Below are positions 7,227 through 42,404 of a DNA stretch of 64,000 bases, one piece after another. The notes beneath the pieces were generated by a model. The model saw only the letters and a program-made list of their open reading frames with translations. It had not been told where the DNA came from and searched no databases. The stretch's first letter is position 1. The number at the start of each line of letters is the position of its first letter. Location: NCBI GenBank assembly GCA_046346705.1, contig JAXMHR010000014.1:84106-148105 (forward strand), read 5' to 3'. Both the position numbers and the translations under genes were made by a program. Source of the DNA: Verrucomicrobiota bacterium (GTDB taxonomy: Bacteria > Verrucomicrobiota > Verrucomicrobiia > Limisphaerales > UBA9464).

Positions 7227-8672
7227 ATGAACCTCCTGGATTCCCTGCCCCAGCAACTCACCCGGCGGCACTTCTTCGGACACGGCGCGCGCGGCATCGG
7301 TGTCGCTGCTCTGGCCTCCCTGCTTCGTCCCTCCGCGGTTTCCGCCGACGCCCCGGTCACCGCGACCGCCGCCGGCGTGGTCCACCCGCTGCATCGCACC
7401 CCGAAGGCCAAACGCGTCATCTACCTGTTCCAGTCGGGCGCGCCCTCCCAGCTCGATCTCTACGACTACAAGCCGACGCTGATCGCGATGAACGGCAAGC
7501 CGATGCCGGAGAGTCTGACCAAAGGCCAGCGCATCGCGCAGCTCATGGGGCAGCCGCTGAATTGCGTCGGCACCAAGTTCGCCTTCAAACGGCACGGCCA
7601 GTCCGGCGCGGAAATTTCGGAACTGCTGCCGCACATCGGCTCCATTGCGGACGAGATCGCCATCATCCGGTCCATGCACACCGAGGCGATCAACCACGAC
7701 CCCGGGGTCACCCTGATGCAGACGGGACACCAGCAGGCGGGCCGCCCGGCGATGGGCGCCTGGGTTTCCTACGGACTGGGCAGCGAGAACCATCAACTGC
7801 CGGCGTTTGTCGTGCTGGCGTCGGGGTTCGGACAGGACCAGCCCCTGCTTACGCGCTACTGGGGCAGCGGCTTTCTTCCGACGAGCCATCAGGGCGTCGA
7901 ATTCCGGTCCGGCGCGGAACCCATCCTGTTCGTCAACAATCCGGACGGCATCACCCCGCAGATCCGACGACGCCTGATCGACGGCGCGCGGGACCTGAAT
8001 GCCCTGCATCTCGGCGCGGTGGGCGATCCGGAGATTGCCACGCGGATCGCGTCCTATGAGATGGCCTATCGCATGCAGTCCAGCGTGCCCGAGTTGATGG
8101 ACCTGTCGAAGGAACCGCGGCATGTGCTGGAGGAATACGGGGCCGAGCCGGGCAAATCGTCCTACGCCAACAACTGCCTGCTCGCGCGGCGCCTTGCCGA
8201 GCGCGATGTGCGGTTCATCCAACTCTATCACCGCGGCTGGGATCATCACAACAACCTGCCGGGCGACATTGCGAAGACGGCGCAGGCGGTGGACCGACCC
8301 ACGGCCGCGCTGATCCGGGATCTCAAGCAACGCGGATTGCTGGAGGACACTCTGGTGATCTGGGGCGGGGAGTTCGGCCGCACCCCGATGAACCAGGGCG
8401 ATACGGCCAACGGCAACTACGGACGCGATCACCACATGAAGGCGTTCTCGCTCTGGATGGCGGGCGGCGGCGTGCGCGGCGGGGTGACCCACGGGGCGAC
8501 GGACGATTTCGGGTACAACGCGGTGGAGGATCCGGTCCACGCCAATGATTTCCAGGCCACGATCCTGCACCTGCTGGGCATCGAGCACACGCAGTTCACC
8601 TATCGGTTCCAGGGCCGCGACTACCGGCTCACTGATATCGGCGGGGAAGTCGTGCGCAAGATTCTGGCCTGA
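7227..8672 (+). CDS. DUF1501 family protein (sulfatase-fold), Tat signal
   Basis: 481 aa. Twin-arginine signal LTRRHFFGHGARGIGVAAL. DUF1501 hallmarks WGGEFGRTP and GRDHH. Classic partner of the preceding PSCyt/DUF1553 gene. Confidence 0.85.
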   Translation: MNLLDSLPQQLTRRHFFGHGARGIGVAALASLLRPSAVSADAPVTATAAGVVHPLHRTPKAKRVIYLFQSGAPSQLDLYDYKPTLIAMNGKPMPESLTKGQRIAQLMGQPLNCVGTKFAFKRHGQSGAEISELLPHIGSIADEIAIIRSMHTEAINHDPGVTLMQTGHQQAGRPAMGAWVSYGLGSENHQLPAFVVLASGFGQDQPLLTRYWGSGFLPTSHQGVEFRSGAEPILFVNNPDGITPQIRRRLIDGARDLNALHLGAVGDPEIATRIASYEMAYRMQSSVPELMDLSKEPRHVLEEYGAEPGKSSYANNCLLARRLAERDVRFIQLYHRGWDHHNNLPGDIAKTAQAVDRPTAALIRDLKQRGLLEDTLVIWGGEFGRTPMNQGDTANGNYGRDHHMKAFSLWMAGGGVRGGVTHGATDDFGYNAVEDPVHANDFQATILHLLGIEHTQFTYRFQGRDYRLTDIGGEVVRKILA

Positions 8673-8902
8673 GCGAAGCCTCTTGGAGCGGGAGCGTTCT
8701 CCCGAGCGCGACTCGTGCTGGGTCGTCCCACACTTCGGGGCAACCCGACATACCGGGGGCTCTGCTCTCGAATTCTCCAAAAGTGTCTGTTTGGTACGGT
8801 CGACGTGCGGTCGCTCTGGATCCAAGTTCCCTGCCACTCATTGTGCGACACCTGCCCCGCGCCGTGTCACCGTCGATAACACGAAAGTCCGCCCTCGGCG
8901 CT

Positions 8903-10165
8903 TCAACGGGAACGGTGGGCGTCGACGCCGGACTGCAAGGCCTCCAGTTCCTGGCGTGCGATCGGGGCGTAGTCGTATTGTTCGACAAAGGTCCGTCCTT
9001 CGCGGGCCCGCTGGAGCCGGGCTTGGTCATTTCCTAGCCAATGCAGAACCCGCTCCGCGGCACGGGTGGTGTCCCCGAGGGGCACCAGATCCAGCTGTCC
9101 CGGGAAGACGTGGTCAAAGATGGGTAGATGCATCGCCACCACCGGCATTCCGAAGCCCAGGCATTCGGTCACCGAAAGCCCCCAGCCTTCCTCGCGGGAG
9201 AGGCTTAATCCGACCCTGCAGCGTTGCATCAGGCGGTTCTTTTCGGCGTCCGGAATACCGCCGGTGAACTGGATTGAATCCGCGAGTCCGGCGTCGGCAC
9301 AGCGCCGCTGAAGTTCCCCGCGGTCGGGTCCTTCACCGATGACGAGCAGCTGGGAACCGGGGCGGCGCGATCGCACCTCCTGCCAGAGCGCGGGGACGTC
9401 GAAGACCCCCTTGTGCCGGTGAACCCGTCCGAGCAGCACCGCGTCGAATTCCTTGGGTTCCTCCGCGCTGTAGGGAACCTCGGTGAAATCGAGTCCATAT
9501 CCGACGACCGCGGTGGGACGCGGTGTCAGTCCGAGTCGCTGCTCAAGCCTTGCGAAGTCCGCGGCGACCGGGGGCGTGCTGCATAGAATGACGTCCGCCC
9601 GGCGGTTCAGCAGCCGGACACTCCAGCGTTCGGAAAGGAGATACAGCTGGTCGAAAAATCCGGCCCGGCTCCCCTGGGCGTCGAGCACATGATGGACCTT
9701 GGCTGCGAAGGCGGCGCCAATTCTTCGGGCGATCCGTCGGGACGGGTAGGTCTCAAAAATCGCCTGGCAGCAGGCGTAGACCACGTCGTAATCCCGGGGA
9801 ATTCTCGCAGTGAACCCGGTGAACATTCTCCAGGCGTACGGGAAAAAGTAGCGCCACGTTTGTCCGAGATGTCCGGTCGCATCAAAGAGGTCGTCCGAGC
9901 TGATCAGCTTCGAGTGCGGATAAAGATCCCGGAACACCGGCCAGGCCGCCCGGGCCACGAAGAAATCCACCGTGTGCCCCTGGGCGACCCAGTGCCGGCA
10001 AACGCCGGCGAAATGGCGTTGGACACCCGAGACGGATTTCCCGTCCAGGGCGGTGTTGTAAACAATCAGGATGCGCACCCGCGGTGCACCATGCCGGGGG
10101 GATGGGGCCGGCTCAAGCCGGATGGATTCCGCCGCGACGTTTGACTCGGAGGGCCGGGTCGTCAC
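8903..10165 (-). CDS. glycosyltransferase, GT4 (GT-B fold) family
   Basis: 420 aa. C-terminal GT4 E-x7-E region SREEGWGLSVTECLGFGMPVVA, N-terminal RILIVYN. The start is uncertain: an in-frame GTG at 10078 is an alternative, because the annotated ATG leaves only 22 nt to the divergent gene. Confidence 0.8.
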   Translation of the reverse strand: MTTRPSESNVAAESIRLEPAPSPRHGAPRVRILIVYNTALDGKSVSGVQRHFAGVCRHWVAQGHTVDFFVARAAWPVFRDLYPHSKLISSDDLFDATGHLGQTWRYFFPYAWRMFTGFTARIPRDYDVVYACCQAIFETYPSRRIARRIGAAFAAKVHHVLDAQGSRAGFFDQLYLLSERWSVRLLNRRADVILCSTPPVAADFARLEQRLGLTPRPTAVVGYGLDFTEVPYSAEEPKEFDAVLLGRVHRHKGVFDVPALWQEVRSRRPGSQLLVIGEGPDRGELQRRCADAGLADSIQFTGGIPDAEKNRLMQRCRVGLSLSREEGWGLSVTECLGFGMPVVAMHLPIFDHVFPGQLDLVPLGDTTRAAERVLHWLGNDQARLQRAREGRTFVEQYDYAPIARQELEALQSGVDAHRSR

Positions 10166-10187
10166 AGTCCTTCGTCCTGCGCCTGGA

Positions 10188-10922
10188 ATGAAGCATCCCT
10201 ACCAAAACCTCTGGTCCCGCATCGCCTTCTGCGTGGAGCGAAACGGGGCCGCGGAGGTTTTCCTGATCCCGCTTCGCATGGCGGCGAGTCCGCTGCTCGT
10301 GCCCGTGCTCCCCCGGCATGGTTTTGTGTATGGCGGGCGGACTCTGACGCCGTTTTATCACCGGTACAATGTCACCTGGGCCAACGAGCGGATGCTGGAG
10401 ATCCCCATCGCCCGTTCCTTTCTGGAGGGGGTTTCACCGGATGAGGTTCTCGAGATCGGCAATGTGCTTTCCCATTACGATCCGGTCCGCCACGCAATCC
10501 TCGACAAATTTGAGCAGGCTCCCGGAGTGATCAATGAGGATGCGCTGACCTGGGAACCGGGCCGCGCCTTTGAACGGATCCTTTCCATTTCCACGTTTGA
10601 GCACATCGGATTCGACGACGACGACAAGGACCCCACCGGACAGCGGATCCTCGACGCCCTGCGTCGGACCCGTGGATTCCTGGCTCCGAAGGGTCGCCTC
10701 GTGATCACCGCGGCTTCGGGATACAATCCCGCGTTTGACGGCCTCGTCCGGGGAAACCGCTTTGGCTCGGACCGCTGCCAGCTCTACCACCGGTCGTCGC
10801 GGCTGGTCTGGGAGCCCTGTTCGGAGGAACGGTACCTGGGGACGCAGTACAATGCCCCGTACGCCTTTGGGAACGCGCTCGTCGTCGCTGAATTTGGACC
10901 CTTGCAAGGAACTGCCGCATGA
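10188..10922 (+). CDS. methyltransferase-fold-like protein (degenerate Gly loop), paralog of 11545..12258
   Basis: Start moved to MKHPYQNLW (ATG 10188) by alignment with the paralog. Shared blocks YN(V/M)TW..ERM(L/I)EIPI, VLEIGNVLSHY, ISISTFEHIGFDDD, GRL(V/I)IT...GYNP, YGNALVVAEFGP. Stop overlaps the next start (ATGA). Confidence 0.55.
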   Translation: MKHPYQNLWSRIAFCVERNGAAEVFLIPLRMAASPLLVPVLPRHGFVYGGRTLTPFYHRYNVTWANERMLEIPIARSFLEGVSPDEVLEIGNVLSHYDPVRHAILDKFEQAPGVINEDALTWEPGRAFERILSISTFEHIGFDDDDKDPTGQRILDALRRTRGFLAPKGRLVITAASGYNPAFDGLVRGNRFGSDRCQLYHRSSRLVWEPCSEERYLGTQYNAPYAFGNALVVAEFGPLQGTAA

Positions 10923-11518
10923 CCACACCCACTCCGGAGACTGCCCCGGATGCCCGCCGCCTCAACATCGGGTGCGGTCTCGACCTGCGTCCCGGCTGGG
11001 TCAATCTCGACATGGTCGATTACGGCGGGAATACCGTGTGCGATCTGAACCGGTATCCGTGGCCATTCCCGGACTCCCACTTTGATGAAGTCCTGGCGAG
11101 TCACATTCTGGAGCACATGGGGAATTTCAACTCCGTGATCACGGAGATCTGGCGGGTGTCCAAGCCGGGCGCGCTGGTCGTGGTCCGCGTCCCGTTTTTC
11201 CTCAGCACCAAGTACTACTCCGAGCCGGATCACCGCATCCCGTTCGGTATCCGGTCGTTTGACAATTACGAGGATTTCTCACACCGGCGGCTCCGGTTCT
11301 ACGAGCGGTGGAAGGCTGGTGACCGAACCAATTACGGTTCACCAGCTCGATACATCGTAGAAAGTAAGCGGTTTCACTTTTCGAATTTTAGAGTCCTGCG
11401 ATGGCTGGATCACTTTATCAATCTGGAGCCCGTCATTTATGAGCGGTTTCTGGCGACCTTGTTGACCCCAGAAGAGGTTTGGTTTCGGCTTCGGGTCGCG
11501 AAATCGCCCATCAGGTGA
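10919..11518 (+). CDS. class I SAM-dependent methyltransferase (Methyltransf_11/23-like)
   Basis: 199 aa. LNIGCGLDLRPGWVNLDM motif I, ASHILEHM, GALVVVRVP. 4-nt overlap with the upstream gene. The 3' third is visibly AT-richer. Confidence 0.75.
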   Translation: MTTPTPETAPDARRLNIGCGLDLRPGWVNLDMVDYGGNTVCDLNRYPWPFPDSHFDEVLASHILEHMGNFNSVITEIWRVSKPGALVVVRVPFFLSTKYYSEPDHRIPFGIRSFDNYEDFSHRRLRFYERWKAGDRTNYGSPARYIVESKRFHFSNFRVLRWLDHFINLEPVIYERFLATLLTPEEVWFRLRVAKSPIR

Positions 11519-11544
11519 TCTGTGAGCATCGGTTTTGCTTACTA

Positions 11545-12258
11545 TCAGGGGCCGAATTCAGCAACCACTAGGGCGTTTCCGTAGGGAAATTTAGATCGAT
11601 AGGGCGCGTTGAATGCGTCGTCGGAGTTGCACTCCCTCCATTCCCTCGCTGCGGTTCTGACCATGAAGTCCAGCCTTTCGGCTTCAAACAGCCCTTTCTG
11701 GACCGCGGAATCCAGCTCCGGATTGTAGCCTGTCGGAAATGTGATGATCAAACGCCCTGACTTGGTGAGGAGGGAACGGCAATGCTGGATGGCCGAGGCA
11801 ATTTTTGATCCGGAGGAGCCATCGTTATCGTCGTCGAAACCGATGTGCTCGAAGGTGGAAATTGAGATGATCAGGTCGAATTGATTCTTCGGATTGAAGC
11901 TCAGAATGTCTGAGTTGATGACGTTAGGAGCCTTTTCGTATTTGTCGACGATCGCGTGTTGAGTAGGTCCGTAGTGGGAAAGGACATTTCCGATCTCCAG
12001 GACTCGATCCGGTTCGTGCTGAGCCACGAGAGCTCTTCCGATGGGGATTTCGATCATTCGTTCCCCAACCCAAGTCATATTGTATTTCGCAAAGAACGTA
12101 TTGAAACGCTGACCGCGAAATTGGAATTGGGTCGGGGAAAGTTTCGGGATTATCCAGTCGGCGAAAATCAATCGGAGGGGTTTTAGGGCAACTTCGCGCA
12201 CGCCAAAGCGCTTAATGAACCAAACGATTCGGGCCACTTTCGTGCTGTAGAGGTTCAT
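11545..12258 (-). CDS. methyltransferase-fold-like protein, low-GC paralog of 10188..10922
   Basis: ORF track 11545..12459. Start moved to MNLYSTKVARIVW (ATG at 12258) because the upstream extension overlaps the neighbouring gene and is unmatched in the paralog. Same conserved blocks as 10188..10922. Confidence 0.55.
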   Translation of the reverse strand: MNLYSTKVARIVWFIKRFGVREVALKPLRLIFADWIIPKLSPTQFQFRGQRFNTFFAKYNMTWVGERMIEIPIGRALVAQHEPDRVLEIGNVLSHYGPTQHAIVDKYEKAPNVINSDILSFNPKNQFDLIISISTFEHIGFDDDNDGSSGSKIASAIQHCRSLLTKSGRLIITFPTGYNPELDSAVQKGLFEAERLDFMVRTAAREWRECNSDDAFNAPYRSKFPYGNALVVAEFGP

Positions 12259-12361
12259 TTTGTCTGGTCGCAGGGTTGCAGCATGATGGTCCGGTTCGCG
12301 AGACGAAAATGCTGCCGAAGGAGAACCTTCGGCAGCATTACGAGTGGTATGCAGAGGAGAT

Positions 12362-13666
12362 TTAGGGCAGTTGAACGAGTCGGAACAGTCTGGTGCCCTT
12401 ATCCCGGGTGCTGACGAGTATCGTGCCTTCAGCGCCGCTTCCGACGAAGGGGTCTCCATATGGCTTCCAAGAGGATCCCGCGAGGTCCTCGCGCCATTCG
12501 ACCTGAAGCCGTTTTCCAGCGACTGTTTGCCACACCAACTCGATTGCGGGTACTGCTTGGATGGGGTGGGTGATTGGATCTGCGAAGCCGTCGAGTTCCC
12601 AAATCCGGGGGGCGCTCCAGAATCTGACGCCGGTATCCACGAATTCAGCGCGATACTCCCGGGCGATAGGACCTGCGACCGTCGATGAGAGAATCAGTCG
12701 GGTATCGAAGTCCTCGAATGTATACGGATGGCTCGGAGAGAAGTCATAGAGCACCGTGTCGAAGGTTTGAGACCCCTGCGATTTTGCGAGAAGTCGAAAG
12801 CGGTCAAACTCCCGGCCATTGAGGAAGGTTGGGCCGTCCCCTTGGGCACGAAGATAGATGGATCGAACTCGAACAGGTTCCTTAGTGGCCCATTCAATGA
12901 AGTGAACGTAGCCGGCAGAGTGGCCATCTTCGAATGTGAAGGTCGTCATCCCGTCTGCGTTGGGAAACAGTCCGCCAAACATATTTTCAGGACGGAACGT
13001 AGCATCAGCCTGGCCGCTGATACCTGTAATGGTCGTTCCCTGACTAAGGTCCCATAGATCGCCTTTAGATCCGAAATCATAGGGTGGGCCAAACCCGTCG
13101 AGTTCCCAAATTCGAGGAGCACTCCAATATCTCACACCGGTGTCCACGAACTCTGCCCTGAACTCCTGCGCGACGACTGGAGGGAACTGGGCAGCCAAGA
13201 CGAGGCGGGTCGAAAAGTCGGTGAAGGAGAACGGATGCGTCGGGGTGTACTCGTAAAGCAGGATATCGAAATTCGTCGAACCGATAGACTTTGCGAAGAG
13301 CCGGAATTTGTCGAATTCGCGGCCGTTCAAATAAATCGGGCCGTCGCCTTGGCTTCTCAGCTCGAACGAAGCTACCCCAACGGGCGCGGCAGTCTTCCAT
13401 TCGATGAAGTGGACGTACCCTGCCGGTCTCCCGTCCTCAAAGGTAAAACTGTGCCGACCGTCTGCATTGGGGAAGGTGCCTCCGAAGGCATTTTCGGGAC
13501 GAAATGACAAATCAGCCTGTCCGCTGATTTTTGTGATCACCGTTCCTTGACTTACATCCCAGAGATCTGTTTTGGATCCAAAATCCAAATCATCGGTTTG
13601 TGCCGACAGGATTGATGCTCCGGAAAGCAAGAAAGCTAACCAGGAACAATTTTTAAAAAGATTCAT
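12362..13666 (-). CDS. secreted protein with two tandem ~167-aa domains plus a C-terminal FFR-type module; function unknown
   Basis: Start moved to MNLFKNCSWLAFLLSGASILSAQ (signal peptide, ATG at 13666). Repeat 1 is at nt 13088-13588 and repeat 2 at nt 12581-13078. C-terminal IELVWQTVAGKRLQVEW...SSWKP...TRLFRLVQLP. Confidence 0.7.
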   Translation of the reverse strand: MNLFKNCSWLAFLLSGASILSAQTDDLDFGSKTDLWDVSQGTVITKISGQADLSFRPENAFGGTFPNADGRHSFTFEDGRPAGYVHFIEWKTAAPVGVASFELRSQGDGPIYLNGREFDKFRLFAKSIGSTNFDILLYEYTPTHPFSFTDFSTRLVLAAQFPPVVAQEFRAEFVDTGVRYWSAPRIWELDGFGPPYDFGSKGDLWDLSQGTTITGISGQADATFRPENMFGGLFPNADGMTTFTFEDGHSAGYVHFIEWATKEPVRVRSIYLRAQGDGPTFLNGREFDRFRLLAKSQGSQTFDTVLYDFSPSHPYTFEDFDTRLILSSTVAGPIAREYRAEFVDTGVRFWSAPRIWELDGFADPITHPIQAVPAIELVWQTVAGKRLQVEWREDLAGSSWKPYGDPFVGSGAEGTILVSTRDKGTRLFRLVQLP

Positions 13667-13769
13667 CAGGTGATCAGGTGAAGGTTTGGTACTGCTTGAG
13701 TTTGTAGCTGTCTGGCTACGTGGGACGTTGACGGTTGTCAAGATTGATTCAGTTCCGGCGTTTCATCTT

Positions 13770-14588
13770 TCAGTGTTGTATTGGATTTTTCTGCTTCAAT
13801 GTCTTCTTGAACGCTGCGAGTCCTCCGAACAGCAATCCATAAACAAACCCGCAGAGGTGGACGAGGACGTCGGAGTTCTCGTTGGTCCCGGTCATGAGGA
13901 AGAGCAGGGCGCCTGTGCCGAGGCTGCTGAGGATGACGCGCGTTCCGCGGCGTCCCGCGGTCCAGAGGGGGATGGATTGGGCCGCAATCATTCCCAGGGC
14001 GCCCATGACCATGCCGGAGGCGCCGAGGCCGACGTAGGGTTCCGGACGGAGCATCATGGCCGTCAGGTTGGCCAGGGTGCCGGAGAGGAATGCGCCCGCG
14101 AGGGCGGTGACCGCCCCGAACCGCGCCATGGCCAGTCCGAGGAAAACGACGCCGAGGGCCACATTGGATGCAAGGTGTCCGAAGTCGCGATGCAGCCAGG
14201 TCGCGGTGAAGGCGCGCCACCACTCCCCCTGGCGGACGGCCCGGGTGTCGAACAAGCCCTGTTCGAAGGCATCCTGAACCAGAAACACCCCGGAAACCGC
14301 GAGGGCCCAGAACAGGGCGCGGGCGTCGTAGAGCAATTCGGATCCGGGAAGTTCGCGGTGCCATCCGATCCCCCGGTTCTCCCGTCGATACTGGGCGATG
14401 GCGGCCTCGGCGCGGGCCTGGTCGGCGGGTTCGACGTGGAGCAGCCAGGCGCCCTCGGGCTCCCGGTCGAGCTGGACCCCGATGCCCTGGCTGGCCAGCA
14501 CGAGCGACCAATCCATGGCCTGCCGTTCGGTCCGCGCGGGAATCGTGGCCAAGGTCTGTTCCGCCTCGATCACCCGCCGAACCTTCAT
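13770..14588 (-). CDS. rhomboid family intramembrane serine protease
   Basis: 272 aa. WRAFTATWLHRDFGHLASN (rhomboid HxxxN region), catalytic GASGMVMGALG, later His in VLVHLCGFVYG. Multiple TM helices. Confidence 0.8.
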   Translation of the reverse strand: MKVRRVIEAEQTLATIPARTERQAMDWSLVLASQGIGVQLDREPEGAWLLHVEPADQARAEAAIAQYRRENRGIGWHRELPGSELLYDARALFWALAVSGVFLVQDAFEQGLFDTRAVRQGEWWRAFTATWLHRDFGHLASNVALGVVFLGLAMARFGAVTALAGAFLSGTLANLTAMMLRPEPYVGLGASGMVMGALGMIAAQSIPLWTAGRRGTRVILSSLGTGALLFLMTGTNENSDVLVHLCGFVYGLLFGGLAAFKKTLKQKNPIQH

Positions 14589-14722
14589 GGGCGGGGAGAA
14601 ACGTGCAAATGAAGTCTTGGGGCGGGTCCGGTGATTCCGGGGAATGATCTCCGGGGTTCGGCGGATCGGTCCGCAAGAATTCCGCTTGGCGTTCCCGGAG
14701 ACTGTGCTAGTCAGGAGGCGCC

Positions 14723-15454
14723 ATGCAGACTTCCAATCCTGTCTTTCGAAACGATCCCTTTACCAAGGCCCCGGCGATCGGCGCCGCGATGACTGTCGGT
14801 GGCTCGGTGTGGAAGACCTTTTTCCTTCTGATGCTCGCGGTGGTGACCGCATCGGCCACCTGGGTGATTTATGCGAGCGGGCAGAATCTGGCGATTCCCG
14901 CCGCCGTGGGTGCTGCGTTTCTCGGCTTCATTCTGGCCATGGTCATCAGTTTTAAGCCGACCTGGGCCGCCGTGCTGGCGCCGGTGTACGCGCTGGTGGA
15001 AGGCGTTTTCCTCGGGGGAATCACGGCCATCATGAATCAACGGTATCCCGGAATCGCCCTGGCGGCGGCCGGTGGAACCGTAGCCACGCTCGCGGCCCTG
15101 CTCTTCGCCTACCAATCCGGACTGATCCGCGCGACCGACAATTTCAAGCGCGGGGTCATTGCCGCCACCCTGGGCATCGCCCTGTTCTACATGGTCGCCA
15201 TGGTGCTCCAATTGTTTCATGTCCAGATCCCGGGCGTCTTTGGCTCGGGATTGATTGGCATTGGATTCAGCGTTTTCGTGGTGGCGATCGCCGCGCTGAA
15301 CCTGGTTCTTGATTTCGACCGGATTGAACAGGGTGCCCGCGAAGGTGCCCCGAAGTACATGGAGTGGTACGCGGCGTTCGGGTTGATGGTCACCCTGGTG
15401 TGGCTGTACATCGAGATCCTGCGCCTGCTGGCCAAGCTGTCGGATCGCCGGTAA
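14723..15454 (+). CDS. Bax inhibitor-1/YccA-like membrane protein
   Basis: 243 aa. MQTSNPVFRN N-terminus typical of the BaxI_1-type family. About 6-7 TM helices. C-terminal charged tail. Confidence 0.65.
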   Translation: MQTSNPVFRNDPFTKAPAIGAAMTVGGSVWKTFFLLMLAVVTASATWVIYASGQNLAIPAAVGAAFLGFILAMVISFKPTWAAVLAPVYALVEGVFLGGITAIMNQRYPGIALAAAGGTVATLAALLFAYQSGLIRATDNFKRGVIAATLGIALFYMVAMVLQLFHVQIPGVFGSGLIGIGFSVFVVAIAALNLVLDFDRIEQGAREGAPKYMEWYAAFGLMVTLVWLYIEILRLLAKLSDRR

Positions 15455-15525: not shown

Positions 15526-16230
15526 ATGATCCAGCCCCTGTTGAATCTGATTCCCGGCCGAAAGGCCCTGTGCGGAATTGCCGTCACGACACTGCCGCTG
15601 CTGGCCCAGGCCCAGATCCCGAATTACTTCGCGCCGGGAGGCGGGGACCGCGCGGGTTCCTGGGAGACTTATGTCGCGCTGGGAGGCATGTCTCCCCGGG
15701 GCATCAACTATCAGAACGTCGGGGGCACCGGCGACAACGTGGATGTGTCGGTGGACACGTTTTTCCGCGGTGGCGTGGGCGTGGGCTACAACATCAACCA
15801 GTTCTGGAACGTCAACTTTGAGCTCACCGTGGGCGCCCCGAATTTTCAGGCCACCGGGTCTGTTCTCGGGGATACGGTCAGTGACACCGTGTACATCGGC
15901 ACGGGAAAACTGAACCTCGACTGGAACATCCTTCCGGGAAACATCACCCCGCTGGTGACCGGCGGCGTGGGCTTCGTGACGCTGACGGTGAACGATCCCA
16001 ACAGCGGCATTGTGTGTTACCCCGACTATTGGTGGGGGACCGTGTGTTACGAACAGACCAAGACGGAGGCGGCCTTTACCTGGAATGTGGGCGCGGGTCT
16101 CCGGGCCAACTTCAAGTACGGCATCTTCGTGAAGGCCGTAGCGGGGGTGGAATGGTGGCTGCTGGACGGAGCCAATGGCGTCCCGTACTCGATCTTCGGA
16201 ACCCTGGCGGTTGGGATGAGCTTCAAGTGA
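15526..16230 (+). CDS. outer-membrane beta-barrel protein (OmpW/opacity-porin-like)
   Basis: Start moved to MIQPLLNLIPGRKALCGIAVTTLPLLAQAQ (ATG 15526, GGGAGG 8 nt upstream). Alternating beta-strand pattern. C-terminal aromatic (…LAVGMSFK). Confidence 0.65.
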   Translation: MIQPLLNLIPGRKALCGIAVTTLPLLAQAQIPNYFAPGGGDRAGSWETYVALGGMSPRGINYQNVGGTGDNVDVSVDTFFRGGVGVGYNINQFWNVNFELTVGAPNFQATGSVLGDTVSDTVYIGTGKLNLDWNILPGNITPLVTGGVGFVTLTVNDPNSGIVCYPDYWWGTVCYEQTKTEAAFTWNVGAGLRANFKYGIFVKAVAGVEWWLLDGANGVPYSIFGTLAVGMSFK

Positions 16231-16254: not shown

Positions 16255-17565
16255 TCAGAAAACCCTTTCGGGAACTTCGACACGGTCGCCCGGTTGCAGG
16301 TCGAAGCGTTGAGCCATGGCTTGGTCCAGACCGACTTCAAGGGTCTTGCCATCGCGGTGGACACGAATCCGGTTTCGGGCGGCGTTTCGCGTAAGATCAC
16401 CGCTGCGGGCGATCAATTCGACCAGGTCCATGGTTCGGCCCACGGGAATGGCGATCATCCCCGGGCGCCCCACGGCCCCGATGACGGCGACGGCATTCGT
16501 GCCATTCGCGTAGGTCGGATCGGCGGTTCCGGCCACAGAACTTCCGGGACCCTGCGTTTTCGGGACGGGTTCCAGGAGCACGTCCCTCAAGTGAAGACCT
16601 GCAAGCTGGCGCTTCAGGGCGAGGAGTTCCCGGCGTGCAGTGAGAACGGCTTCCGTTCCCACGATGCCCTGCGACTTCAATTCCTCGAGTCGTTTGACCT
16701 GGAGTTCCGCGATGTCGATTTCCTGGCGCAAGTAGTCCTCCGGAGTTCCCCGGACGGTTTCGGCGGCGGACTCCAGATCTGACATGGATTTCTCCTCCTG
16801 CTTTCGCTGCAGGGCGAGCACCTGGAGACGCCGTTCCTGTCGTTCCATTTCCCGATTGAGCGACGCGGTGCGAAGTTCGAGCGACTGAAGGATCCCCTGG
16901 ATCTCCTGCTGCAGTTGGTGTTGAAGCGTCTTCAGGACGGCCTCCTCCTTGACGCGGTCCGGGTGCTGCGGTCCGAAGTCGTTGCGCAGCGTGGCGAGCC
17001 GGATCTCCGACAGGTGATATTCCGTCCGGAGGCGGTTCAGTTCCGGGGTTGGGTTGGCGGCAGCCAGTGCGCCGGACGCGTCGGCATCGGAAGTTGCGGA
17101 CAATGCGTTGGTGGCCAGAGTCCGGAGAGCGTCCAGTTCCGAAGATCGGTTCCTCAGCGACTGTAGTTCCGCGAGGGCCCGGTCGTGATCCCCCTGGAGT
17201 CGTGACAGGCCCGTGGAGGTGGAGTCCAGCGCGGAATCCCTGGAGAGGGTGATTGCCGTCAGGTTGGTCCATTCGCTGAAATCCCGGCGCAGTCTGCGAT
17301 AGCCGATGGCCGCCTCGTTGGTGCGGCCGAGACGTCGTTGAGCCTCCGCCAATCGGAACAGGGCGGTGGCCATGACACCCCGTTCCTCGTCGCCCAGTCG
17401 GACGGCTTCGGCATAGGCGTCCGCCGCCGCAACGAGATCGCGTTGAGCTTCCTCAGCCAGCAGTCCCCGCTGAAGGGCCTCGTGGATGGGGTCGGAGGCG
17501 TGGACGAAGGGAGCGGTCAGCAACAGCGCGGCGAGCGCGGCTGGATGTGGGACGTGTAGATTCAT
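16255..17565 (-). CDS. exported TPR/coiled-coil protein with C-terminal SLBB (beta-grasp) domain
   Basis: 436 aa. Signal peptide MNLHVPHPAALAALLLTAPFVHA. Long heptad-rich middle. C-terminal SLBB-like VAVIGAVGRPGMIAIPVGRTMDLVELIARSGDLT...LQPGDRVEVPERVF, as in polysaccharide-export proteins. Confidence 0.6.
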   Translation of the reverse strand: MNLHVPHPAALAALLLTAPFVHASDPIHEALQRGLLAEEAQRDLVAAADAYAEAVRLGDEERGVMATALFRLAEAQRRLGRTNEAAIGYRRLRRDFSEWTNLTAITLSRDSALDSTSTGLSRLQGDHDRALAELQSLRNRSSELDALRTLATNALSATSDADASGALAAANPTPELNRLRTEYHLSEIRLATLRNDFGPQHPDRVKEEAVLKTLQHQLQQEIQGILQSLELRTASLNREMERQERRLQVLALQRKQEEKSMSDLESAAETVRGTPEDYLRQEIDIAELQVKRLEELKSQGIVGTEAVLTARRELLALKRQLAGLHLRDVLLEPVPKTQGPGSSVAGTADPTYANGTNAVAVIGAVGRPGMIAIPVGRTMDLVELIARSGDLTRNAARNRIRVHRDGKTLEVGLDQAMAQRFDLQPGDRVEVPERVF

Positions 17566-39485: not shown

Positions 39486-40838
39486 TCAGCGAAGCAGCAG
39501 CTTCTCGAGATACCCGACCGTCTGTCGCACCTGGGGATCCACCTCCATGCGGTTCTTCACAGCGCGCACGGCGTGCAACACCGTGCCGTGGTCGCGTCCG
39601 CCGAAGGCATCCCCGATGGAACTCAGCGAACTCTCGGTCAGGGTCCGGCAAAGAAACATGGCCACCTGACGGGGGAAGGCGATGTTCTCCGGACGGCGCT
39701 TGCTGGTCATGTCGGCGAGCCGGATGTCGTAGTGCTCGGCCACCCGCTTCTGAATCACCTCAAATGTGATGGCACGGCGGCTCTCCTCCTGGAGGATCTC
39801 GCGGAGCAGGTTTTCAACGTCGTCGAGTCGCACCGGACGTCCGGTGAGCTGGGTGAAGCTGGCCACGCGGACGAGCGCGCCTTCGAGGCGTCGCACGTTG
39901 GTGCGGATGCGATCCGCGAGGAACTGGACGATTTTGTCGTCGAGTTGGATGCCGAGTACGGCCGCCTTTTGACGGAGGATGGCGAGGCGCGTTTCGACGT
40001 CGGGCGGCTGGAGATCGGCGGTCAGACCCCATTCAAAGCGGGAGATCAGCCGTTGTTCGAGTCCGGGAATCTCGCTGGGCAGTTTGTCGCAGGTCAGGAC
40101 GATCTGCTTCCGTGCCTCGTGGAGTGTGTTGAAGGTGTGAAAAAATTCCTCCTGGATGCGTTCCTTGCCACTCAGGAACTGGATGTCATCCACGAGAAGG
40201 CAGTCCACCTGGCGATACCGGCGCCGGAACTTGGCCAGGGAGTTGTTCTGCAGGCCGTCGATGAACTCGTTGGTGAAGCGTTCGCAGCTCAGGTAGGCCA
40301 CCTTGGCGTTCTTGCGATGACTCAGGACTTCCTGGCCGATGGCGTTGAGAAGATGGGTCTTTCCGAGCCCGACGCCGCCAAACAGAAAGAGCGGATTGTA
40401 GGAACGCCCGGGATTTTGCGCGACGGCGATCGCCGCACTGTGGGCCATCTGGCTGTTGCTGCCGACCACGAACGTGGAAAACGTGTTGCTCGGATTGAAC
40501 GACGCCTCGACGGGGCGGCCGGCTACGGTGACCACACGCGGTTCCTCGCGGACCGGTGCGGGTGCGGGCCGGGCGGGAACGCTGGACAGGACTCCGACGA
40601 CAAACTCGATCTGGACCGGACGGACCGCCGTGCGGCTGGCCACCGAACGCAGGAGATCGAGATAATTATCGGTCAGCCACATCGCACAAAAGTCGTCGCG
40701 GACCTCCAACTTGAGGCGGTCACCCTCGAGGGAGACCGCGCGGATGGGCTCAAACCAAAGCTGATAAATGTCCGGTTTCAGGAGGCCTTGCAGGTGCTCC
40801 TGGACATTGGTCCAAAGGGTTTCGGCGGTGACGGGCAT
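39486..40838 (-). CDS. dnaA: chromosomal replication initiator protein DnaA
   Basis: Walker A GGVGLGKTHLLNAIG, LLVDDIQFLSGKERIQEEFFHTFN, C-terminal DNA-binding domain IAFPRQVAMFLCRTLT..SLSSIGDAFGGRDHGTVLHA. Start taken as ATG 40838 (MPVTAETLW). An upstream in-frame GTG at 40889 is the ORF-track start. Confidence 0.95.
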   Translation of the reverse strand: MPVTAETLWTNVQEHLQGLLKPDIYQLWFEPIRAVSLEGDRLKLEVRDDFCAMWLTDNYLDLLRSVASRTAVRPVQIEFVVGVLSSVPARPAPAPVREEPRVVTVAGRPVEASFNPSNTFSTFVVGSNSQMAHSAAIAVAQNPGRSYNPLFLFGGVGLGKTHLLNAIGQEVLSHRKNAKVAYLSCERFTNEFIDGLQNNSLAKFRRRYRQVDCLLVDDIQFLSGKERIQEEFFHTFNTLHEARKQIVLTCDKLPSEIPGLEQRLISRFEWGLTADLQPPDVETRLAILRQKAAVLGIQLDDKIVQFLADRIRTNVRRLEGALVRVASFTQLTGRPVRLDDVENLLREILQEESRRAITFEVIQKRVAEHYDIRLADMTSKRRPENIAFPRQVAMFLCRTLTESSLSSIGDAFGGRDHGTVLHAVRAVKNRMEVDPQVRQTVGYLEKLLLR

Positions 40839-40881
40839 TCTGGGTGGCTGGAAAGGGCGTTCCGGGGGAGAAAATCTGGGT

Positions 40882-40903
40882 TTATTCACGCCCCAAATTC
40901 ACA
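40882..40903 (+). promoter_or_regulatory. pair of DnaA-box-like 9-mers upstream of dnaA
   Basis: TTATTCACG (40882-40890) and AAATTCACA (40895-40903), compared with the consensus TTATCCACA. They lie 44-65 nt upstream of the ATG at 40838. Confidence 0.4.
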
Positions 40904-41164
40904 GGGCTGTGACGCGTCGCCGAACTGCGCAACTTCTGAGTTCTCAACGGAATAGGCGAAACCAAATCCAGGAACCCGATTGAACCCTTCCTGAAACTAT
41001 CCATCGCATAACTCATTGTATATGAATGGATTATTTGATTCATTCTTGAGCGGTTTCAGGAAATGGGAACTAGGGCCGGATTGGCGAGATGGCGCGACGA
41101 CGGCTGGCTTGTAGAGTGTCGAGCCTCGGCAAACTAGACGAAATTATTACGAGTTCTGCCCAAG

Positions 41165-41173
41165 TTATTCACA
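41165..41173 (+). promoter_or_regulatory. DnaA-box-like 9-mer
   Basis: TTATTCACA has one mismatch to the TTATCCACA consensus. It has the same TTCACAGGG context as the box at 40895. Confidence 0.45.
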
Positions 41174-41261
41174 GGGGGTAAATCTCCCCGTTTTTGGCCG
41201 GAAAATGGAGAGTTGCCGACGGTAAACGGCCCCTGGGCCGGCGGCGGTTCCTGGGAACAGT

Positions 41262-41630
<369 letters not shown>

Positions 41631-41765
41631 CTAACGCGCCGGCCCGAATGAAGTAAACGCCTTTTTGGACTGCAATAATCAGGTTCTCCCCTTGACGAAA
41701 CGGGTCCGCCTTTGTGCAGGCCTCATCCCCGCTTGCGGGGTGCGGGTTCCGGGGAATCCTGCCGA

Positions 41766-42404
41766 ATGATCCGTCCGGTTTTCCCAGTTCTCACCGTGAG
41801 CGTGGTCCTCACTGCCCTCGTGGCCGGCGGGTGCCAGGTGACCCGCGCGGGGTACGCGAGTGCACCGTACCGGGTGCTCCAGCAATCCGGCGATGTGGAG
41901 ATCCGGTCCTATCCCCCGTTGCGACTGGCGGAGACGTCCACCGGGGGCGACGACTTCATGCGGTTGTTCCGATACATCTCCAAGGGCAATGCCTCGGAGA
42001 CCAAGATTGCCATGACGACGCCGGTTTTGATGACGGATCTGGGAACGACCCAGGGTCGGATGGCGTTTGTCCTGCCCGAGGATCTGAACGCGCCCCCGGC
42101 TCCCTCGGTTCCCGGGGTGGAGCTGAGGACCACGGAGGCGACCACGGTGGCGGTCCTGCGCTTCCGCGGAGGACAACAGGGACCCGATGGCGAGGCCGCC
42201 CGGAAACTGACCTCTTGGATGGCCCGCGAGGGAATTCCGGCTGAAGGCGGCCCGGTGTTTGCCTACTACGATCCGCCCTGGATTCCCGGATTCCTCTGTC
42301 GGAATGAGGTCATGATCCGCACGTCCTGGCCCGCACCGGTTGTCTCATCGTCAACAGATTCCGGTCACCGTGCCGAAGCCGGACGGCCTGCGGACGCGCG
42401 GTAG
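41766..42404 (+). CDS. SOUL haem-binding family lipoprotein
   Basis: ORF track 41712..42404. Start moved to MIRPVFPVLTVSVVLTALVAGGC (lipobox). YRVLQQSGDVEIRSYPP, IAMTTPVLM, FAYYDPPW are typical of the SOUL/HBP fold. Confidence 0.7.
   Translation: MIRPVFPVLTVSVVLTALVAGGCQVTRAGYASAPYRVLQQSGDVEIRSYPPLRLAETSTGGDDFMRLFRYISKGNASETKIAMTTPVLMTDLGTTQGRMAFVLPEDLNAPPAPSVPGVELRTTEATTVAVLRFRGGQQGPDGEAARKLTSWMAREGIPAEGGPVFAYYDPPWIPGFLCRNEVMIRTSWPAPVVSSSTDSGHRAEAGRPADAR

Follow-up and report, generated by a model that had tools for sequence, protein, structure and literature searches.

How does a block of AT-rich DNA come to lie between two conserved genes of an otherwise GC-rich genome, with one of its edges inside a coding sequence? 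The question is raised by a low-GC island at 11300-13800 of a 64-kb stretch of DNA (the window, hereafter, is this whole stretch) from the metagenome-assembled genome (MAG) of an uncultured member of the Verrucomicrobiota. The island lies between MT11 (10919-11518, + strand), which encodes a small class I methyltransferase, and the convergent gene of a rhomboid-family intramembrane protease (13770-14588, - strand). It holds two genes, both on the - strand: parB (11545-12258), whose product is methyltransferase-like, and the gene of a secreted protein with two tandem domains (12362-13666). The original prediction had seen in this block a horizontally acquired or recombined cassette whose junction created or replaced the 3' end of the resident methyltransferase gene. 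The model we propose, and which we hold to be probable, if by no great measure, is that of an old two-gene accessory cassette, residing in a slot that has traded its content through homologous recombination within the 3'-terminal parts of the flanking genes.

Composition and edges of the block

The guanine plus cytosine (G+C) content at 11300-13800 is 0.525, against a mean of 0.649 (standard deviation 0.018, minimum 0.600) for the other 2.5-kb segments of the 64 kb, which corresponds to a z-score of about -6.8; the 2.5-kb segment with the lowest G+C starts at 11301. The best two-breakpoint likelihood fit over 8-17 kb places the block at 11191-13850, with a G+C of 0.527 inside and 0.635 outside (twice the log-likelihood difference, 91.5). 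At third codon positions, the G+C (GC3) is 0.63 in parB and 0.59 in the tandem-domain gene, the two lowest values in the window, against 0.72-0.85 in the neighbouring genes and 0.78 ± 0.06 in an approximate set of open reading frames (ORFs) covering all 64 kb. In raw tetranucleotide distance the island ranks highest in the window (z +9.4); its GC-normalised dinucleotide signature is unexceptional (z 0.8, rank 46 of 247), so that the island departs from its surroundings in G+C and not in signature. The low-GC island is thus real, and a strong outlier in sliding-window G+C, in GC3 and in tetranucleotide usage. The genes assigned to it were also called correctly: it spans parB, the tandem-domain gene and the spacers, together with a shortened rhomboid tail and, in MT11, the synonymous positions of the final ~65 codons.

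The left edge deserves particular attention. MT11 is highly conserved (65-92% amino acid identity over some 60 loci) and its product scores above the threshold of the Pfam model Methyltransf_11 (32.5 bits vs a cut-off of 21.2). Its GC3 is 0.81 in codons 1-132 and 0.55 in codons 133-199, with a change point near nucleotide 11315 across which the G+C of the first two codon positions (GC12) remains constant; a split into 140 and 59 codons gives a Fisher p of 0.003. In four codon bins, GC3 takes the values 0.77, 0.83, 0.76 and 0.58 here, and 0.83, 0.81, 0.76 and 0.58 in L001, the MAG of a sister species (GCA_016793645.1). The C-terminal third of the protein is conserved family sequence in genomes both with and without the island. 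In genomes where the site is empty the 3' part of the gene has a GC3 of 0.90-0.94, vs 0.55-0.60 here, and this encoding of the same residues rules out amino acid composition as the source of the drop. Among 57 MT11 orthologues, the present genome and L001 rank first and second for the fall of GC3 from 5' to 3', and the four orthologues with the tandem-domain/parB cassette downstream (here, L001, L062 and L071) are all found within the top six. In L003 the drop sets in near codon 93, and in L002 the AT shift extends over all of the gene that is visible, so that the endpoints of the junction are lineage-specific. The boundary predicted inside the methyltransferase gene is therefore borne out, at third codon positions only, whereas the making or replacement of a 3' end is not, since the C-terminus of MT11 is native and synonymous sites alone differ. 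The segment 11315-11518 (+) would be the left recombination junction: a synonymous-site mosaic in a conserved gene, as a homologous crossover would leave, without any new gene end.

Judging from the alignments, the gene with a truly altered end is the rhomboid gene and not MT11. The right edge does take in its last ~14 codons, as had been predicted (13770-13811, -; G+C 0.33), and these form an AT-rich, non-conserved replacement tail at the right junction. Here and in L001 (L001:3776-3817), that is, in this genus, the protein ends about 20 residues before all other orthologues (44-94% identical) and lacks the last hydrophobic, predicted transmembrane helix; the two short tails are unrelated to those of the other orthologues, and a DNA alignment with L002 and L003 reveals a deletion of about 80 nt at the end of the gene. 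The adjoining spacer (13667-13769; G+C 0.49), AT-richer than the DNA around it, shows little conservation, and it is contained in the 200-nt bin (13600-13799) that has the lowest identity to L001 (0.695) of the island and its immediate flanks. The rhomboid gene itself (GC3 0.82) is a resident one. Its product passes the general Pfam model Rhomboid only (62.1 bits), the rhombosortase model TIGR03902 giving 51.8 bits vs a trusted cut-off of 84, and the truncated protease may still be functional, to judge from a dN/dS (nonsynonymous to synonymous substitution ratio) of 0.066 for the gene in its entirety.

None of the usual marks of a mobile element accompanies these edges, as the original prediction had stated. 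ARAGORN detected no tRNA or tmRNA across the 64 kb, no integrase, transposase or recombinase occurs among the genes scanned between 8.9 and 17.6 kb, and no direct repeats bracket 11.2-13.9 kb. Long repeats are limited to the internal duplication of the tandem domains and the inverted repeats I1-I3, which correspond to parB and its paralogue parA (10188-10922, +), an inverted pair on either side of MT11. An island bounded by a tRNA, an integrase or repeats can be ruled out, as none of the three markers was detected.

The slot in relatives and the history of its content

The block is not a recent arrival. L001 is collinear with the present genome over 9.6-17.6 kb, at ~83-85% nucleotide identity, with the same GC dip and without indels at the island edges. 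The synonymous divergence (dS) between the two is 0.91 for parB and 1.13 for the tandem-domain gene, and 0.56-1.12 for seven flanking genes; dN/dS is close to 0.06 for both island genes (0.058 and 0.057, respectively). On these comparisons, the block predates the split of the two sister species and encodes functional, constrained proteins, both genes being subject to strong purifying selection. The best matches of the island proteins are verrucomicrobial loci that also hold orthologues of the flanking genes. Of the cassette first proposed, the recombined accessory block in a variable slot is retained; it is not recent, given its presence in the sister species at a dS of 0.56-1.13, and it would come from within the phylum. 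There is likewise no sign of the donor from a different, lower-GC clade that had been envisaged, the best BLAST hits being verrucomicrobial, the identity ranks congruent and the dinucleotide signature host-like.

The comparison of orthologous loci supports the accessory character of the block, for the slot is found empty, occupied by parB alone or otherwise filled. The present genome, L001, L002 and L003 share the order rhomboid gene, tandem-domain gene and parB, all facing a convergent MT11; in L002 and L003 the rhomboid protein is 62-65% identical to ours and the block is AT-rich (0.47-0.52). In L031 (rhomboid 59%) parB alone separates the rhomboid gene from the convergent MT11, and a 41%-identical homologue of the tandem-domain protein lies beyond MT11; GC3 is there ~0.8 in a ~0.88 host. 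In L012 and L013 (rhomboid 49%, MT11 80-81%) the rhomboid gene and MT11 are directly convergent and the slot is empty, as verified on the ORFs, and in L055, L061, L070 and L085 the two genes are adjacent and the slot is empty according to hit coordinates only. In L007, a different low-GC gene follows the rhomboid gene. The rhomboid DNA of L007 is 89.8% identical to that of L002, the homology ends 110 nt before the stop codon, and the alternative gene is convergent and encodes a 600-aa secreted protein with a CHB_HEX_C_1 domain, at a G+C of 0.55 vs 0.64-0.68 in the flanks. The sequences of L007 and L002 thus appear to record a same-site replacement between near relatives, with its breakpoint inside the 3' end of the rhomboid gene.

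Two side observations may be added on these loci. The L007 protein (L007:10890-12692, -) has a tandem repeat of its own (~190 aa, twice), a chitobiase/Fn3-associated domain and a thrombospondin-like acidic motif, and by eye its C-terminal beta-sandwich resembles that of the tandem-domain protein, a resemblance that BLAST did not confirm. Furthermore, L011 (JBIKWS010000575.1, 3.5 kb), binned as 'Cyanophyceae cyanobacterium', has rhomboid match statistics equal to those of the Verrucomicrobiales locus L012 and is probably a mis-binned verrucomicrobial contig.

The two-gene module is also found in at least five other genomic contexts, where it is usually AT-richer than its host. Genes of the par family and genes for discoidin-like proteins adjoin in the unrelated contexts L034, L062, L071 and L121, with MT11 adjacent in the first three. 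The GC3 of the module is 0.58-0.60 vs 0.72-0.78 in L034, and its G+C is 0.55 in L121 vs roughly 0.59-0.65 in the neighbours; in L032 a parB-like gene only is present, beside GT4 and LamG genes, at 0.53-0.55 vs 0.62-0.75. The module is near the G+C of its host in L031 and L122. No donor lineage carrying it at its host's own low G+C was identified, the modules of L121, L034, L032 and L002 being AT-richer than their hosts.

In the model that we favour, the slot between the convergent and conserved MT11 and rhomboid genes would be prone to recombination. The block would have been installed, or last exchanged, by homologous recombination with crossovers inside the 3' ends of both flanking genes, an exchange that would have left a homologous, AT-richer allele in the last ~65 codons of MT11; the rhomboid tail would have been truncated later. 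The donor DNA would stem from a pool of such modules, AT-richer and internal to the phylum, and the low G+C would represent the usual AT bias of exchanged, un-ameliorated accessory DNA. The genes of the cassette would be functionally linked; parB is the paralogue of parA, itself presumably co-transcribed with MT11.

Several observations weigh against this model. The evidence of L007 comes from a single MAG contig, which ends just past the alternative gene. Third-position identities with distant relatives approach saturation, L001 alone being unsaturated at synonymous sites, and are driven by shared GC3, so that a comparison of the two portions of MT11, 5' and 3', yields no usable phylogenetic discordance. 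The identity ranks of parB, the tandem-domain protein, MT11 and the rhomboid protein are congruent across L001, L002, L003 and L031, which fits vertical residence equally well. As to gene trees and polymorphism, L001 and at least 10 conspecific assemblies carry one and the same block. The low G+C has been kept in both sister species over about one synonymous substitution per site, which is awkward for simple amelioration. Changes polarised between AT and GC pairs, at too few sites, put the equilibrium GC3 of the tandem-domain gene at 0.68-0.76 and that of parB at 0.48-0.56, and the GC-normalised dinucleotide signature of the island is host-like.

Could the block then be a long-resident, vertically inherited one, kept AT-rich locally by weaker selection or weaker GC-biased gene conversion on weakly expressed accessory genes under a general AT-biased mutation pressure, with no import behind its composition? 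We regard this as possible, though rather improbable. The synteny and the GC dip common to the present genome, L001, L002 and L003, with their congruent identity ranks, the low GC3 that either sister lineage has kept through a dS of about 1, the host-like signature and the polarised counts of parB, which imply an equilibrium GC3 of ~0.5 from very few sites, would all fit it, and reviews hold that acquired or accessory genes may owe their AT-richness to processes that act after acquisition and not to the donor (PMC4462595). A gene-specific process should, however, end at gene boundaries, whereas the edge lies ~200 nt inside the highly conserved and presumably co-expressed MT11, at a codon that varies with the lineage. 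MT11 orthologues without the cassette have no 3' drop, and L031, where the same genes have a GC3 of ~0.8 in a 0.88 host, indicates that they need not be AT-rich. It is above all the intragenic, lineage-specific edges in MT11 and the wholesale replacement at the same site in the near relative L007 of L002 that argue against a vertical local process.

The dip might also be a mere by-product of proteins rich in F, Y, N, K and I, without any evolutionary event, which we consider very unlikely. The G+C at first and second codon positions is indeed below that of the neighbours in parB (0.52 and 0.40) and in MT11 (0.57 and 0.43), and MT11 lies 3-6 points under its locus in nearly all genomes, with a GC12 of ~0.48. 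GC3, which is free of amino acid constraint, is nevertheless the lowest of the window for both island genes, MT11 encodes the same residues at a GC3 above 0.9 where there is no cassette, and the spacers are AT-rich too. More improbable still is a recent acquisition from a distant low-GC clade, by a mobile element or an illegitimate insertion that fused new sequence to the methyltransferase 3' end. The large deviations in G+C, GC3 and tetranucleotides and the presence of par-family genes on viral contigs would suit it, but L001 shares the block and its edges at a dS of about 1, at least 10 assemblies of the same species carry it as a fixed feature, the C-terminus of MT11 is conserved native sequence, the window holds no tRNA, 8.9-17.6 kb no integrase and the flanks no repeats, and the closest homologues are verrucomicrobial and syntenic, the viral ones being 32-40% identical, apart from one short fragment at 46%. 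Finally, an assembly or binning chimera of two organisms, which the metagenomic source and the many assemblies that break near the locus might suggest, has a negligible probability and is ruled out in practice by four assemblies from other, independent runs that are 100% identical over 9362-15071 or sub-ranges of it and cross both junctions, by the same gene order in further runs and by the collinear MAG of the other species (L001).

The encoded module and its surroundings

The methyltransferase-like gene of the island had been described as a low-GC paralogue, which it is, though not of MT11: parB is paralogous to parA, with 44% amino acid identity between the products. ParA is the resident paralogue of normal composition (GC3 0.74), without any Pfam or NCBIfam match; its stop codon overlaps the start of MT11 (ATGA) and its L001 orthologue is 92% identical. 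The G+C of parB is 0.515. The AlphaFold model of its product (pLDDT confidence score 90.4) is matched by Foldseek to methyltransferases dependent on S-adenosylmethionine (SAM) with E ~1e-6 and TM structural-similarity scores of 0.35-0.42; the two par proteins are predicted to have the Rossmann-like class I methyltransferase fold. The glycine-rich motif I (E/DxGxGxG) is not present in parB; in parA and parB this SAM-binding loop is degenerate, LEIGNVLSHY, with one glycine, and is invariant over 63 homologues. Among family models, Methyltransf_12 is the sole Pfam hit of parB (18.4 bits vs a cut-off of 30), NCBIfam gives none, and sequence searches of the PDB with parB and with the tandem-domain protein returned no meaningful match, so that the comparison of folds alone proved informative for the two proteins. 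The parB product has 237 aa, from an ATG at 12258, in all homologues and independent annotations. The mechanically called ORF is 67 codons longer upstream (12259-12459; 304 aa) and overlaps both the 3' end of the tandem-domain gene and a hairpin at 12308-12339 (-). This hairpin, a perfect 14-bp stem behind which the minus strand runs into a T-rich stretch, emerged from an inverted-repeat search and looks like a terminator of the tandem-domain gene; a scan for consensus promoters and terminators found none exceeding the shuffled expectation and did not list it.

The tandem-domain protein (G+C of the gene, 0.543) has 434 aa: a signal-peptide-like N-terminus, two domains of ~170 aa (residues 26-195 and 196-365) that are 69% identical to each other, and a C-terminal beta-sandwich of ~70 aa. 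Neither Pfam, F5_F8_type_C included, nor NCBIfam gives a hit at E <= 0.01. With its structural model (pLDDT 86.5), Foldseek retrieves allantoicase, ZmpB CBM32-1/2 and neuropilin b1b2 at E values of 1e-9 to 3e-11, and single CBM32 modules match at TMt 0.65-0.84; the protein is thus predicted to carry two CBM32/discoidin-like jelly-roll domains. With one domain as the query, 589 clusters at 50% identity were found among 1.84 billion representatives. Proteins of ~120 to ~2,500 aa contain 1-5 copies each of the discoidin-like 'DLWD...ELDGF' domain, and some homologues bear PEP-CTERM, Ig or LamG domains; PEP-CTERM anchors terminate some of the single-domain forms.

On viral contigs (IMG/VR), an MT11-like gene lies within ~1.5 kb of a par-family gene in 9 of 13 cases (among them L123, L124-L128, L130 and L133), which suggests that par and MT11 form an enzyme pair that phages carry too. 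The G+C of the par-bearing viral contigs ranges from 0.44 to 0.67, and their par-family homologues are 32-40% identical to parB, with the exception of one short fragment at 46%. A phage origin of the cassette is unsupported, given these viral par identities of 32-40% and the 39% of the sole match to the tandem-domain protein in the viral collection. The viral contig L127 bears, close to a head-tail adaptor gene, a run of methyltransferase-like genes and a glycosyltransferase gene. In ~30 metagenome loci, for example at L037:8593-9300, L012:11654-12352 and L047:8596-9297, MT11 is directly preceded or followed by a third class I methyltransferase of ~232 aa that begins with MILPQLLWRF...; it is absent here and from every locus with the tandem/parB module.

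From this recurrent association, we infer that par and MT11 would work together as a methyltransferase pair and that the secreted lectin-like protein would act on the same surface structure; the module may relate to variation of the cell surface. A wider proposal, which we hold to be doubtful, is that the interval downstream of the rhomboid gene would be a dedicated swap site of Verrucomicrobiota for AT-rich cassettes encoding different secreted lectin-like surface proteins. The discoidin-like protein, par and MT11 would then constitute an undescribed module, methylating a surface glycan bound by the secreted protein, or that protein itself, with a par/MT11 pair that is phage-borne as well.

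Around the slot, gene calls and a domain scan identify a GT4 glycosyltransferase (8903-10165, -) upstream of parA and, beyond the rhomboid gene, a BaxI-like protein (14723-15454, +), an outer membrane protein (OMP) beta-barrel (15526-16230, +) and an SLBB/TPR protein (16255-17565, -). Further left, the segment 4198-8672 holds a PSCyt1/PSCyt2/PSD1 (DUF1549/DUF1553) gene and, after it, a DUF1501 gene, a pair typical of Planctomycetes and Verrucomicrobia that fits the taxonomic assignment. Beside dnaA (39486-40889, -; domains Bac_DnaA, DnaA_N and DnaA_C) the G+C of the window falls to its second-deepest minimum (0.583 at 41-42 kb), with a P-II gene at 41262-41600, and the region 40500-42000 is a candidate replication origin. 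The minimum of the cumulative GC skew is found apart from dnaA, at ~7500-10500, to the left of the island, the skew being negative over 1-8 kb and positive from ~11 kb.

Comparison with known systems

At the level of the proteins, the secreted protein matches Clostridium perfringens ZmpB CBM32-1/2 and neuropilin b1b2 in predicted fold and in the arrangement of its two domains, and it differs from them by a sequence identity of 9-17%, by the lack of any Pfam or NCBIfam model and by a family of its own of ~589 clusters. The parA and parB products share the Rossmann-like fold of the class I SAM-dependent methyltransferases, and MT11 lies above the Pfam threshold of this class; unlike its typical members, parA and parB have a degenerate glycine-rich SAM loop, and the Pfam hit of parB stays below threshold.

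With the classical genomic islands, the block has in common an atypical composition and a patchy distribution at deeper taxonomic levels. Atypical base composition (G+C z -6.8, tetranucleotide z +9.4) is the sole one of the four classical features tested that was found here. Unlike such islands, the block is accompanied by no tRNA (64 kb), no integrase or transposase (8.9-17.6 kb) and no flanking direct repeats, and its edges lie inside genes, in homologous sequence. Three features of an exchangeable cassette are, on the other hand, present: conserved flanks, contents that are alternative or missing, and breakpoints that appear to lie inside the flanking genes.

It is with the variable surface-structure loci, whose content is exchanged through homologous recombination in conserved flanks, that the comparison goes furthest. 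In Salmonella and E. coli the O-antigen cluster, with its shared rml genes, lies between galF and gnd, and in the pneumococcus the cps locus lies between dexB and aliA. The low-GC O-antigen clusters of Salmonella have flanking rml genes in common, in which the G+C content is graded in the direction of the genes specific to the O antigen; the exchange of these clusters is ascribed to homologous recombination in the shared end genes (PMC3715488). The slot described here resembles the O-antigen loci in that conserved genes bracket a content that differs between relatives and is AT-richer than the genome, and in that a shared flanking gene, MT11 in the place of rml, changes its composition towards the variable part, with no integrase or tRNA found; its neighbourhood, too, contains glycosyltransferase, methyltransferase and polysaccharide-export-type genes (GT4, SLBB). 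It differs from them in its size and content, two genes for a secreted lectin-like protein and a methyltransferase-fold protein in the place of a pathway of glycan polymerisation, and in that no polymorphism is seen either among conspecific genomes or on comparison with the sister species. Furthermore, recombination is here deduced from composition and from one replacement at the level of the genus, and not from discordant trees.

In conclusion, our observations carry a lesson for the detection of horizontal gene transfer by parametric methods: a 7-sigma GC dip with an intragenic edge, which resembles fresh foreign DNA, corresponds here to an old, selected and species-fixed block, and what looked like a junction in MT11 would be a homologous allele that shows at synonymous positions alone. 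For the Verrucomicrobiota, a small variable slot beside a rhomboid protease and a recurrent, uncharacterised discoidin-like/par/MT11 module are modest leads. The locus would be an ordinary genome mosaic, a new example of the well-known kind to which the O-antigen loci belong, and it leaves the current understanding of such loci unchallenged.

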